In this document: one piece after another, positions 44,880 to 48,553 of the stretch | How positions within the stretch are numbered: the first letter of the stretch is position 1 | Layout: each line of letters opens with the position of its first letter | NCBI GenBank assembly: GCA_964413645.1 | Contig: CAYPSA010000002.1 | Span: forward strand, 22,508-86,507 | Source of the DNA: an uncultured Gammaproteobacteria bacterium | GTDB lineage: Bacteria > Patescibacteriota > Microgenomatia > UBA1406 > HO2-37-13b | Reading direction: 5' to 3' | Length of the DNA stretch: 64,000 bases | Notes under the pieces: model-generated | Database searches by the model: none | Told to the model about the DNA's origin: nothing | The model's input: the letters and a program-made list of their open reading frames with translations, nothing else | Position numbers and translations under genes: made by a program

Positions 44880-46391
44880 TTATTTAAGAGTTTGATCCTA
44901 GCTCAGGATGAACGCTAGCGGTGTGCCTAAGATATGCAAGTCGAACGGTTCTGGAGCAATCCAGGATAGTGGCGGACGGCTGAGTAACACGTACAAACGT
45001 ACCCTCTACTTGAGAATACCCACGCGAAAGCGTGGCTAATACTCGATAGTCTCGTATCGCAAGATACGAGTAAAGGATGTAACTATCCGGCGGAGGAGCG
45101 GTGTGCGGACTATCAGATAGTTGGTGGGGTAACGGCCTACCAAGTCTATGACGGTTATCCGGTTCGTGAGAATGGCCGGACAGAGGAGCACTGAGACACG
45201 GGCTCCACACCTACGGGTGGCAGCAATTAGGAATAGTTGGCAATGGGGGAAACCCTGACCACGCGACACCGCGTGTAGGACGACGCTCTAATCGAGTGTA
45301 AACTACTGTGGTAGGGGAAGAAGATCGCCCTATGGGCGATTTGACGGTACCTTACTAGAAAGTGTCCGCTAACTGCGTGCCAGCAGCGGCGGTAATACGT
45401 GGGACACAAGCGTTATCCGGTGTGATTGGGCGTAAAGAGTGTGTAGGCGGTTTGATAAGTCTTGTTTCAAATAATATGGCTCAACCATATTCCGGGACGA
45501 GATACTGTCAGACTAGAGTTTTCTTTAGGGAAATCGGAATTCACCGAGGAGTAGTGAAATGCGTTGATACGGTGAAGAACACCAGTGGCGAAGGCGGATT
45601 TCTGGAAGATAACTGACGCTGAGACACGAAAGCTGGGGGAGCGAACCGGATTAGAGACCCGGGTAGTCCCAGCCGTAAACGATGCTCGCTGGCTGCATCT
45701 GTCTGTATTTATATGGATAGGTGTGGCGAAGCTAACGCGTTAAGCGAGCCGCCTGGGGAGTACGGTCGCAAGGCTGAAACTAAAAGGAATTGGCGGGGAG
45801 ACACACAACTAGTGGAGCATGTGGTTTAATTCGATACAAACCGAAGCACCTCACCAGGGTTCGACATGTAAGATGTAATCCCGATGAAAGTCGGGACCTG
45901 CGCAAGCACGCTTACAAAGCTGTTGCATGGCTGTCGTCAGTTCGTTCCGTGAGGAGTGCCCTTAAGTGGGACAACGAACGCAACCTTTGTCCTGAGTTAC
46001 AAGTGTCTCAGGAGACTGCCCTTGCTAACCGCAGGGGAGGAAGGAGAAGCAGACGTCAAGTCAGCATGATGCTTATGCCCTGGGCTACACACATGCTACA
46101 ATGGGCCATAATAAAGAGTTGCGACGCCGTAAGGTGTAGCTAATCTCCATTAAACTGGCCCTCAGTTGGGATTGAGGTCTGAAATTCGACCTCATGAACC
46201 TGGAATTAGTAGTAATCGCGGGTCAGCTATACCGCGGTGAATACGTTCTTGTCTCTTGCACACACTGCCCGTCAAGCCAACAAAGTCGGGAGTACCCGAA
46301 TCCTGCGTAGCGGGAGAGGGTAAATTCGGCGATGGGGGCTAAGTCGTAACAAGGTACTCGTTCTGGAAGGAGCGGGTGAATCACCTCCTTT
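44880..46391 (+). rRNA. rrs: 16S ribosomal RNA
   Basis: 5' AGAGTTTGATCCTAGCTCAG at 44887. GTGCCAGCAGCGGCGGTAATAC at 45377. AAGTCGTAACAAGGTA at 46341. 3' CACCTCCTT ends at 46390. Ends approximate; no large insertion. Confidence 0.95.
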
Positions 46392-46447
46392 CTAATTTTT
46401 TTGAACAATTAGTTCGAAAAAGTTAATAAAACCCGGAAAGTAAAACA

Positions 46448-46837
46448 ATGGGCATTACTTTCCACCACATCTATATTGTTAACAAATTTTTGAAACAAAT
46501 TATGGCAAAATTTGGCGTAGAACTTATTCAACCTAATCCTTCAGCAGAACCTAAATTCCCCTATTTGTCTTTACGCGAACCACAACAATGGCTTGAACAA
46601 TCGGAGATTACATTGCATCGAGGACCAGGATCTAGTACTGGTACTTTTGGCATACAGCACCCCTCAGTGCATGACGCAAGCAAACTAGTAGATGTTATTG
46701 ATGGATTCTTTAGTGATAGGGAAGAACATCCAAGAGTTTTACGAGTCGTAGTGTACGACTCTGCTTGGAAGGAAACTGCTGAAATGTTCCGAGATAGACA
46801 TAATGATGAACTTGGTATTATAAGAGCTAAAATATAA
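46448..46837 (+). CDS. hypothetical protein (129 aa) directly downstream of the 16S
   Basis: ORF-track ORF. No motif recognised. Occupies the position where a spacer or 23S would normally follow. Confidence 0.4.
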   Translation: MGITFHHIYIVNKFLKQIMAKFGVELIQPNPSAEPKFPYLSLREPQQWLEQSEITLHRGPGSSTGTFGIQHPSVHDASKLVDVIDGFFSDREEHPRVLRVVVYDSAWKETAEMFRDRHNDELGIIRAKI

Positions 46838-46904
46838 TCTTCTCCTGAACCTTCTGGATCTTGCGTAAATAGTGACAACTTTTGAATGTATAATATCCCT
46901 TACC

Positions 46905-46975
46905 GGGCCTGTAGTTAAGTGGTAAAACACCGCATTCGCATTGCGGGGGCGGGGGTTCGATTCCCCCCAGGTCCA
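46905..46975 (+). tRNA. tRNA-Ala (anticodon CGC)
   Basis: Folded by hand. Acceptor GGGCCTG/CAGGTCC with the G3:U70 alanine identity pair. Anticodon arm CCGCA-TTCGCAT-TGCGG. T arm GGGGG-TTCGATT-CCCCC. CCA not encoded. Confidence 0.85.
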
Positions 46976-47002
46976 CACGAAGCAATGATACGTCTATAAA
47001 AA

Positions 47003-47583
47003 TCACTGAACTTCATATGTAACTTCATCGGGGAAAAGAATAAGAAACGGATAGCCAACATAATTTCGCGTTATTTTTCCACATCCCATTTTTTTAAGAA
47101 AACCGACCATTTCTTTAGTTACTTTATCTGGATCTATATTTTCGTCTTTACCTATGTAGTCAATTTCTACAAAATCTCCCAGAATTTTTACCGAATCTAT
47201 CCCAACTTCATAATCCTTATACGTCCACGTCTTTCGTACTTTATCAACTTTCGCAATAGATTTAAAATCGAGAGCCATAACGATCTTTTTGGCTTGCTCT
47301 ACATTTCCCACCGTAGTTTCAATTTCATCACAATACTGACCTTTTCCCTTTGTATCAAAATGCCATTTTTTGTAATTTATAGAAAAGTTTCCTTCAGCAT
47401 CACGTAGTCGAAACCATTCGGAAACTGGCCTTGTTGCCAAAAAGTCTTTGTGTAAAGGAGTAAAATATTCGCTATCTGTCGTTTTTCTGATTGAAAAATT
47501 CCATTGGTTTCTAAAAATGCCAAAAGGGGCCCGAAGTTTTGCACATTCACTTGAATTTCAATTTCGATATTCTTGTGAGTCAT
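47003..47583 (-). pseudogene. CYTH-domain protein (class IV adenylate cyclase / triphosphate tunnel metalloenzyme family) split by a -1 frameshift
   Basis: ORFs 47377-47583 (IEIEIQV N-terminal ExExK-like motif) and 47003-47440 (WFRLRD...GDFVEIDYIG) together make one CYTH protein. The frames switch at a T5 run (47482-47486). Confidence 0.7.
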
Positions 47584-47627
47584 AACGGGTGACTAATTAA
47601 TTTTAATTTGTTTACATTTTGATAGAA

Positions 47628-48479
47628 CTAGGCTGAAAAAGTATCACCAGTTCCATATGGTCCATTTTGATATTGTAGCTTTCCTATGCTTGTAAAAAAT
47701 GGTGTCACACCCCTCGTATCATTCGTTTTCATAGAACTTATTTCGGCAAGTTTATCATCTGGGATGATATATAAACCATCGGCTCTTACTCGCCTAAACC
47801 CAAGTCTATCACCTTCACTATCCATGTCTGGGAATGTTCTTTGGTAAAAATCTTCCAAAAGATCCGGGTGTTGCGCAATTTCGCTTAAGAATTCTGTCGC
47901 TACGTCCGCGGGTAACTCTGTTGAAATATAGGCTGGTGTACACCAGCCTCTGCTATCTTCCTGCTTTCTGTCTTGAAAGAAACGAAGAGTCAAAATTCTA
48001 CTTGACTCATCAGTCGTCGATGGAGCAACCGATACAATATGAGAACCAATCAAATCTGGAAATTGTTTCTGTTTTTCATATACTAGATTATGTAAATAAG
48101 CTACATTCTTGTCAGAATCTGCTCTCTGTATTTTATCAGGACCATGATCATAAAAACCTGTAGGGTCAGTTATCGGTATCCCAATTACTTTAGTTCCAGC
48201 CGCAAGCTTACCATGAGCGTTTTTCCTGATAACTGCTTTAGCGAATCTTTCCGCCGAAGGCTTACCTTCATCTTGAGCTCCAACGGCTTCAGTTACTTCA
48301 AAGGCTTCAGAATTATTAACATTCGTAGTTGTATCAGCAGGACGTAACAAAGATATAGACTCAATATCTTGTGCAGTTAACTCTCTCCCTTTTAAAATGC
48401 CAATCAAAGTTTCTGTTGACACACTGTTCAACATTTCGGTCATTTCTTGTGTTACTTCTGTTGTTTCGCCTTCAGCCAT
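47628..48479 (-). CDS. hypothetical protein (284 aa)
   Basis: ORF-track ORF 47628-48551 trimmed to MAEGETTEV, because the upstream 24 codons are the tRNA-Ile gene. No TM and no motif recognised. Confidence 0.5.
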   Translation of the reverse strand: MAEGETTEVTQEMTEMLNSVSTETLIGILKGRELTAQDIESISLLRPADTTTNVNNSEAFEVTEAVGAQDEGKPSAERFAKAVIRKNAHGKLAAGTKVIGIPITDPTGFYDHGPDKIQRADSDKNVAYLHNLVYEKQKQFPDLIGSHIVSVAPSTTDESSRILTLRFFQDRKQEDSRGWCTPAYISTELPADVATEFLSEIAQHPDLLEDFYQRTFPDMDSEGDRLGFRRVRADGLYIIPDDKLAEISSMKTNDTRGVTPFFTSIGKLQYQNGPYGTGDTFSA

Positions 48480-48553
48480 GGTGGGTGTGCCAAGGATCGA
48501 ACTTGGGACCTCGTTCTTATCAGGAACGCGCTCTACCACTGAGCCACACACCC
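48479..48553 (-). tRNA. tRNA-Ile (anticodon GAT)
   Basis: Reverse complement folds as GGGTGTG-TG-GCTC-AGTGGTA-GAGC-G-CGTTC-CTGATAA-GAACG-AGGTC-CCAAG-TTCGATC-CTTGG-CACACCC-ACCA. Confidence 0.9.

Follow-up and report, generated by a model that had tools for sequence, protein, structure and literature searches.

An unlinked 16S rRNA locus with two variable protein-gene slots in a Microgenomatia genus

In Patescibacteria (the Candidate Phyla Radiation, CPR) it is typical, as seen from long reads, for 16S and 23S rRNA genes to be unlinked: this is so in 27 of 34 circular CPR genomes and, among Microgenomatia, in 10 of 11, with distances of 2.9-309 kb, and open reading frames (ORFs) and tRNA genes have been noted beside the rRNA genes (Brewer et al., bioRxiv 10.1101/705046; Lui et al. 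2021, PMC8172020). In Borrelia burgdorferi, 16S and tRNA-Ala are co-transcribed, tRNA-Ile is inverted and forms its own transcript, and the 23S-5S pairs then follow (Bugrysheva et al. 2011, PMC3037291). Here we examine a 64-kb stretch of contig CAYPSA010000002.1 (hereafter "the window"), which carries a 16S gene, a tRNA-Ala(CGC) gene, an inverted tRNA-Ile(GAU) gene and three ORFs between these RNA genes. A first-pass annotation had taken this arrangement for an ancestral rRNA (rrn) operon broken open by an inversion and by the insertion of three protein genes. The observation itself is confirmed; as to its origin, we think it likely that the locus is a normal one for its group, inherited vertically within a Microgenomatia (Patescibacteria/CPR) genus whose 16S and 23S-5S genes are permanently unlinked.

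The whole window was searched with Rfam at gathering thresholds, and tRNA anticodons were read with ARAGORN. Together with the ORF list, these scans confirmed the RNA genes and found the gene order, coordinates and anticodons of the first-pass annotation to be right (its 284-aa ORF is ORF283 here). The 16S gene is full-length and has no insertions (44880-46391, forward; RF00177, 1344.5 bits, model positions 1-1533). Rfam places tRNAs at 46905-46975 (forward) and 48482-48553 (reverse), with a third at 7490, and ARAGORN gives tRNA-Ala(cgc) at 46905-46976 (forward) and tRNA-Ile(gat) at 48479-48553 (reverse). Large-subunit and 5S rRNA have zero Rfam matches in the 64 kb, i.e. in 44.9 kb upstream and 17.6 kb downstream of 16S, which agrees with the earlier statement that neither gene occurs in the remaining 17.6 kb, and a permissive Rfam scan (E<=1) found no rRNA debris in 46380-48700. 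The 16S-to-23S distance is at least 17.6 kb on one side and at least 44.9 kb on the other, well past the >1500 bp by which Brewer et al. define unlinked genes, so that the proposed separation of 16S from 23S and 5S was borne out. The window holds no canonical linked operon (co-oriented 16S and 23S with a spacer of up to ~1.5 kb) and no canonical spacer (tRNA-Ile(GAU) then tRNA-Ala(UGC) on the rRNA strand): here the Ala anticodon is CGC, and tRNA-Ile is on the opposite strand and distal to tRNA-Ala. On the left the locus is flanked by two NUDIX genes (43646-44654, reverse) and on the right by genes for dCTP deaminase (DCD), dUTPase, ThyA, DHFR, a ClpB-like ATPase and Tmk. The elements of the locus are listed below, where "five genomes" stands for the window plus four congeners, from different samples and assemblers, and slot A is the interval from the 16S trailer helix to the tRNA-Ala box.

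44677-44705, forward: promoter-like TTGCAA-17-TATAAT upstream of 16S (consensus scan, 10/12 matches)
44752-44776, forward: 16S processing helix, 5' leader arm (25-nt inverted repeat, identical in five genomes)
44880-46391, forward: 16S rRNA gene (RF00177 match)
46448-46837, forward: ORF129, an orphan protein gene in slot A (ORF call, 129 aa)
46459-46483, forward: 16S processing helix, 3' trailer arm (96% complementary to the leader arm)
46889-46894, forward: TATAAT box 10 nt upstream of tRNA-Ala(CGC) (conserved in five genomes; putative promoter)
46905-46976, forward: tRNA-Ala(CGC), with G3:U70 (Rfam, ARAGORN)
46977-48478, no strand: slot B, variable cargo between the 3' ends of the convergent tRNAs (congener comparison)
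47003-47583, reverse: CYTH/CyaB-type gene with one frameshift, probable pseudogene (frames 47377-47583 and 47003-47440)
47628-48479, reverse: ORF283, a conserved Patescibacteria family (ORF call, 283 aa)
48479-48553, reverse: tRNA-Ile(GAU), CCA encoded (Rfam, ARAGORN)
48568-48595, reverse: promoter-like TTGAAA-16-TATAAT, 14 nt upstream of tRNA-Ile (best site in the region, 11/12 matches)

The evidence that carries our interpretation comes from relatives. Congener loci were found via contigs carrying members of the 90% protein clusters that hold window proteins; the named members of these clusters are called "Microgenomates group bacterium" at NCBI and, since CPR genomes are reduced, the source genome appears small. 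Four congeneric genomes were compared: L019 (with L020, L021 and L022), L045 (GCA_964422025.1), L039 (with L041) and L043 (GCA_038127095.1). Their 16S genes are 98.9-99.8% identical to that of the window, and four flanking genes are 10-19% different. All four have the same backbone, in which 16S and tRNA-Ala(CGC) on the forward strand are followed by tRNA-Ile(GAU) on the reverse strand and then by DCD-dUTPase-ThyA-DHFR; tRNA-Ala(CGC) is at the equivalent position in each, the mature tRNA-Ile of the window recurs unchanged in all of them, and their loci (20 kb examined each) contain neither 23S nor 5S. The unlinked state is common to these relatives, as it is to the published Microgenomatia. 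In L039, the minimal congener, 16S, tRNA-Ala and the inverted tRNA-Ile are packed within about 830 nt. The three protein genes can indeed be called insertions with respect to congeners, as L039 has 159 nt between the tRNAs and L043 and L045 have no slot A ORF, but they did not split an operon, because the backbone is still unlinked in congeners where it is free of these ORFs.

One may also consider that the contig was mis-joined at the conserved RNA genes. Logan contigs of the same strain from runs SRR8893623 and SRR8893624 (L001, L002) end within tRNA-Ile (48517/48524), and a third (L047, from SRR8893623) ends within both tRNAs (46947 and 48533), so that the assembly graph branches there, as it should where co-occurring relatives have the tRNAs in common but not the sequence in between. 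Against a chimera, the backbone was found again in at least five assemblies of other samples, and L047 spans the window-specific junctions: it matches 46947-48533 at 100%, the CYTH frameshift included, with the same slot B cargo flanked by 30 nt of tRNA-Ala and 55 nt of tRNA-Ile, and other SRR8893623 contigs likewise match the window at 100%. We therefore regard the junctions as real and reject misassembly, which has next to no credibility; strain-level mixing of slot cargo is the most that is possible. That assemblies break exactly at near-identical RNA genes is a practical warning for strain-resolved binning.

The RNA genes also carry their own signals, and 16S, tRNA-Ala(CGC) and tRNA-Ile(GAU) look like three autonomous transcription units. 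Both hexamers of the promoter-like site upstream of 16S are identical in the five genomes, and similarity to L019 starts near the -35 box. The 16S gene is bracketed, as in canonical rrn operons, by a predicted leader/trailer helix of 25 bp that is kept in five genomes; the duplex has a predicted energy of -58.9 kcal/mol, vs -34.5 +/- 4.7 for shuffled trailers. The trailer arm is kept in L045, L039 and L043, all of which are without ORF129, and is thus conserved as RNA and not as coding sequence. RNase III cleaves such a leader/trailer helix in other bacteria. At the tRNA-Ala box the block TGTATAATAT is kept in all five genomes, while the sequence immediately upstream of it is unrelated among them, and the promoter-like site of tRNA-Ile is identical in all five. 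We propose that 16S would be transcribed from its own sigma-70-like promoter and the pre-16S excised via the leader/trailer helix, without a 23S context; that tRNA-Ala(CGC) would be transcribed from the conserved TATAAT box, read-through from 16S being also possible; and that tRNA-Ile(GAU) would be transcribed convergently from its own strong promoter. Since 16S carries its own helix and promoter, this architecture appears settled and not visibly the product of a recent break.

What varies is the protein-coding content of the two slots, which differs in nearly every genome compared:

Slot A, window and L019: ORF129
Slot A, L039: an unrelated 91-aa ORF
Slot A, L045 and L043: only short GTCATTCTGAG...GAAGAATCTCC repeats, no ORF
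Slot B, window: frameshifted CYTH gene and ORF283, 1502 nt
Slot B, L019 and L045: flavin reductase, HxlR and a GIY-YIG-like ORF, about 1566 nt
Slot B, L043: GIY-YIG-like ORF, 464 nt
Slot B, L039: nothing, 159 nt between the tRNAs

At slot B, similarity to the congeners ends at 46976 and restarts at 48481, and neither blastn-short nor tblastx found traces of ORF283 or the CYTH gene in congener slots, or of congener cargo in the window. ORF129 has no Pfam or NCBIfam family at threshold, and the only homologue found is the L019-type copy. The two copies differ by 38 substitutions, distributed 9/6/23 by codon position, with zero indels, and ORF129 is thus a coding sequence. Its first 18 codons coincide with the trailer helix region, the arm itself lying within the first 12; because the helix is conserved even where ORF129 is absent, the true start is probably the ATG at 46502, giving 111 aa. 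Between the window and L019, identity is 90% for ORF129 and 83% for flanking genes, and the closest relative of each lacks ORF129, a pattern that fits exchange or repeated loss.

The CYTH gene of slot B appears to be decaying. Frame 47003-47440, which encodes the C-terminal 145 aa, scores above the curated cut-offs for PF01928 (52.5 bits, cut-off 23.2; 6.9e-14) and TIGR00318 cyaB (72.1 bits, cut-off 57.95), and frame 47377-47583 encodes the N-terminal 68 aa with the motif EIEIQ, so that an intact frame with the ExExK motif is not found. The frames rejoin with one base added in the T5 run at 47482-47486, and the frameshift is seen again in the independent SRR8893623 contig, L047.

ORF129 in slot A and the CYTH gene and ORF283 in slot B would then be what this genome carries at present and would not have caused the split. 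Homologous recombination probably uses the near-identical RNA genes as anchors, so that cassettes between them may be replaced or lost. This idea draws on three observations, namely that the breakpoints coincide with the ends of RNA modules (the trailer helix, the tRNA-Ala box and 3' end, and the tRNA-Ile 3' end), that ORF129 is closer between window and L019 than the genes around it, and that it is missing from the closest relative of each. We would expect the 23S-5S pair elsewhere in the genome, with tRNA-Ala(UGC) before it.

Several points weigh against parts of this interpretation. No terminator was found between 16S and tRNA-Ala, and both may form one unit, as in Borrelia. The promoters and the helix are sequence predictions backed by conservation, and the invariant arms show no covariation. 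The anchor mechanism is deduced from breakpoint positions. Finally, the search for the 23S and 5S of this genome covered 64 kb of a 152,976-bp contig and found neither.

Some side observations concern the variable intervals. The slot A repeat, GTCATTCTGAG(A/C)GCGAAGCG...GAAGAATCTCC, resembles miniature inverted-repeat transposable elements (MITE) or repetitive extragenic palindromes (REP); L043 has three copies (8182, 8237, 8304), and it also fills slot A of L045; the positions recorded outside L043 are L045 16761, L019 17153 and window ~63090 (reverse). Its first 10 bases (TCATTCTGAG) have single matches elsewhere too, one of them in the window. A small GIY-YIG-like ORF lies beside the tRNA-Ile 3' end in L043 (8421-8884), L019 (11631-11966) and slot B of L045 (tblastx 71% over 112 aa), and could be a homing-type element that adds to slot turnover. 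The region just upstream of the 16S promoter is variable among congeners as well (window 43646-44654, reverse, vs L019 5070-7867 and L039 2090-6332): the window has the two NUDIX genes, L019 and L045 have one NUDIX gene, a Trp-repressor-like gene and three or four unknown ORFs, and L039 has an additional BrnT/CopG toxin-antitoxin pair.

The reading of the first-pass annotation was that the locus is the relic of a 16S-tRNA-Ile-tRNA-Ala-23S-5S operon opened by an inversion and insertions, with both tRNAs surviving from the spacer. This is a historical claim and partly compatible with our interpretation. For the anticodon of tRNA-Ala the codon usage is informative: the long ORFs of the window use GCA 386, GCU 273, GCG 182 and GCC 180 times, and since tRNA-Ala(CGC) reads only GCG (18% of Ala codons), a tRNA-Ala(UGC) must exist elsewhere. 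More distant Patescibacteria loci, reached through homologues of ORF283 (L003-L007, L027, L035, L038), have tRNA-Ala(UGC) directly upstream of 23S-5S. The tRNA-Ala(CGC) of the window shares ~70% identity with the UGC genes found before 23S in L003 and L038, a value that discriminates poorly because those two UGC genes are themselves just 76% identical. On the evidence here, tRNA-Ala(CGC) would be a separate isoacceptor gene rather than a demonstrated spacer tRNA; the proposal that it is a spacer remnant finds no support, since in related lineages it is the UGC gene that stays with 23S-5S.

For tRNA-Ile(GAU), which could be a spacer relic, the evidence is mixed. In the L003 lineage, tRNA-Ile (88.9% identical to that of the window), a serine recombinase, an ORF283 homologue, three small ORFs, tRNA-Ala(UGC), 23S and 5S follow one another co-oriented over 5 kb; L035 likewise has tRNA-Ile(GAU), the homologue and, further on, tRNA-Ala(UGC)-23S-5S, and in L038 too an ORF283 homologue precedes tRNA-Ala(UGC)-23S-5S. 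The tRNA-Ile/ORF283 unit is thus rRNA-associated in other lineages, which speaks for a relic, as do the compactness of 16S, tRNA-Ala and inverted tRNA-Ile in L039 and the Borrelia order of 16S, Ala and inverted Ile beside 23S. Against it, the 8-10 kb upstream of tRNA-Ile in L003 and L035 contain no 16S, and L013, which has the order tRNA-Ile-tRNA-Val, ORF283 homologue, ClpB-like gene ... DCD, is free of rRNA genes over 16.7 kb. The window and L013 have these ClpB-like and DCD neighbours in common (~50% protein identity), and the tRNA-Ile/ORF283 unit is oppositely oriented in the two relative to these genes, a point in favour of the relic reading. However, a single inversion cannot turn 16S-Ile-Ala-23S into 16S, Ala and inverted Ile with the present order and strands, the locus holds no rRNA debris, and the insertions are younger than the split. 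Nor were homologues of the L003 genes that flank 23S-5S found in the window or the congener loci. Taken together, a relic of this kind seems rather unlikely, and about the same holds for a variant in which an ancestral 16S-Ile-(ORF283)-Ala(UGC)-23S-5S unit broke at different points in each lineage.

The tRNA-Ile of the L003 lineage lies between a large serine recombinase gene and a TraG/TrwB-like gene (L003 5712-9731, reverse, and L008 1888-5590, reverse; tRNA-Ile at L003 7950-8022). Some gene calls merge the two into a 1339-aa protein running over the tRNA, and HEPN/nucleotidyltransferase toxin-antitoxin genes adjoin; these genes beside the 23S locus look like a mobile element. The L003 23S measures 3442 nt vs a model of 2925 positions, probably because of insertions (L003 13028-17696; L035 12989-17657), and in L003 and L035 a LAGLIDADG ORF lies between 23S and 5S, which are ~1.1 kb apart.

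ORF283 belongs to a family aligned here from the window protein and 16 homologues (41-55% identity, 39 invariant alignment columns), whose N-terminal Met aligns. The protein has no Pfam or NCBIfam family at threshold, and its AlphaFold2 model (mean predicted local distance difference test score 77.6) has no PDB match better than E = 0.03 at a template-modelling score of 0.26. In a scan of one genome per GTDB species, ORF283 alone returned nothing and the family alignment two loci, neither the source genome nor the congeners being among them. Members of the family are often found just downstream of a same-strand tRNA, which differs by lineage (Ile, Val-UAC, Val-GAC, Glu-CUC):

Window, 47628-48553, reverse: tRNA-Ile upstream, gap 0 nt
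L024, 9906-10807: tRNA-Val(UAC), gap 20 nt, no TATAAT box
L025, 722-1779: tRNA-Val(GAC), gap about 160 nt
L036 (9776-10612) and L037: tRNA-Glu(CUC), gap about 90 nt
L013, 4842-6675: tRNA-Ile and tRNA-Val, gap about 850 nt, counted to the 66-aa ORF with which the 276-aa form starts; other genes inserted in the gap
L003 group (L003 7950-10765): tRNA-Ile, gap about 2 kb; other genes inserted in the gap
L031-L034: no tRNA within 1.5-2 kb

Two of the genomes with Patescibacteria-type homologues, the metagenome-assembled L023 and L024, are titled "uncultured Gammaproteobacteria bacterium"; this naming appears mistaken, given that the P0014 cluster has its representative on the L023/L013 contig and includes a member called "Patescibacteria group bacterium".

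The recurrence of this family behind different tRNAs raises the question of whether slot B is a tRNA-targeted mobile islet, with ORF283 and the CYTH gene brought to the tRNA-Ile 3' end by homing or site-specific integration. The cargo boundary falls exactly at the tRNA 3' ends, cargo is present in some genomes and absent in others (ORF283 itself from all four congeners), L003, L005 and L008 have a serine recombinase between tRNA-Ile and the ORF283 homologue, and the GIY-YIG-like ORF occupies the equivalent slot of L043 and of L019/L045. However, there is no integrase or recombinase gene in 46977-48478 or near the slot and no direct repeat of at least 12 nt of the tRNA 3' end around it, i.e. 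neither hallmark of an integrative island was found at slot B, and the GC content is not deviant. Moreover, tRNA-Ile, the ORF283 homologue, the ClpB-like gene and DCD are neighbours in L013 too (~50% protein identity), which speaks for an old vertical linkage. We consider such an islet improbable, and prefer cargo turnover between conserved RNA genes at a vertically inherited locus.

The abutment of tRNA-Ile and ORF283 deserves consideration in its own right. The ATG of ORF283 shares its A with the last A of the encoded CCA of tRNA-Ile, the junction reading ...CACACCCACC and then ATGGCT. In six other lineages of the family the conserved start ATG stands 6-8 nt after a TATAAT box, which points to a leaderless transcript there. 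In the distantly related L024 the start codon comes 20 nt behind tRNA-Val and has no TATAAT box. In the window this box is missing before the ATG, and the consensus scan found no other promoter-like site upstream of the ORF. A leaderless start was also considered as a speciality of the family, and rejected, as ORFs throughout the window commonly have a -10 box right before the ATG: by a crude regex test, such a box ends 5-9 nt before the ATG in 12 of the 58 long window ORFs, and a Shine-Dalgarno (SD)-like motif precedes three. ORFs starting at 6011, 6945, 9763 and 59710 are examples of the leaderless layout. Leaderless initiation thus seems common in this organism, to judge from its upstream sequences. 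One may tentatively suggest that ORF283 is expressed by a bacterial form of "tRNA punctuation", in which tRNA and mRNA would be co-transcribed from the tRNA-Ile promoter and maturation of the tRNA 3' end would free a leaderless mRNA, or one with a 2-nt leader. Because the leaderless layout is general in the genome this is a reasonable idea, though a doubtful one, and an alternative is that ORF283 is a silent gene beside the decaying CYTH gene. In either case, the junction offers a concrete and testable case of tRNA processing possibly making a leaderless mRNA in an SD-poor bacterium.

The main result is therefore a negative one: no operon has been caught in the act of breaking. The locus is real, conserved and ordinary for its clade, a settled CPR arrangement that is not to be flagged as a rearrangement or a misassembly. 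What the five genomes add is the fine scale of cargo turnover between conserved RNA genes, together with the tRNA-ORF abutment; the gaps between the near-identical 16S, tRNA-Ala and tRNA-Ile genes are hot spots of small-gene swapping between species.

Compared with known systems, slot B resembles tRNA-associated genomic islands in having variable cargo that abuts tRNA 3' ends between conserved flanks, but differs from them in its size (0.16-1.6 kb), in lacking an integrase and an att repeat, and in being bounded by two convergent tRNAs. With the E. coli-type rrn operon and its Ile(GAU)/Ala(UGC) spacer (PMC5179076), the locus has in common an upstream 16S promoter, a leader/trailer helix, and Ile and Ala tRNA genes near 16S; unlike that operon, it is without 23S and 5S, its Ala anticodon is CGC, tRNA-Ile is on the other strand, Ala comes before Ile and each gene has a promoter-like box. 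The closest single analogue is Borrelia burgdorferi, in which the order and strands of 16S, tRNA-Ala and inverted tRNA-Ile match those seen here; there, however, the 23S-5S pairs lie ~2.5 kb past tRNA-Ile (PMC3037291), whereas here that place is taken by dCTP deaminase and other nucleotide-metabolism genes, with no 23S within 17.6 kb and with CGC as the Ala anticodon. The best fit is with the unlinked rRNA genes of CPR bacteria, from which the locus has no fundamental difference: any 23S is over 1.5 kb away from 16S, the clade as a whole keeps the trait, and protein genes and tRNAs adjoin the rRNA gene. To that picture it adds detail at the species level, namely the two hypervariable slots and a 16S gene that is self-contained in its promoter and helix.

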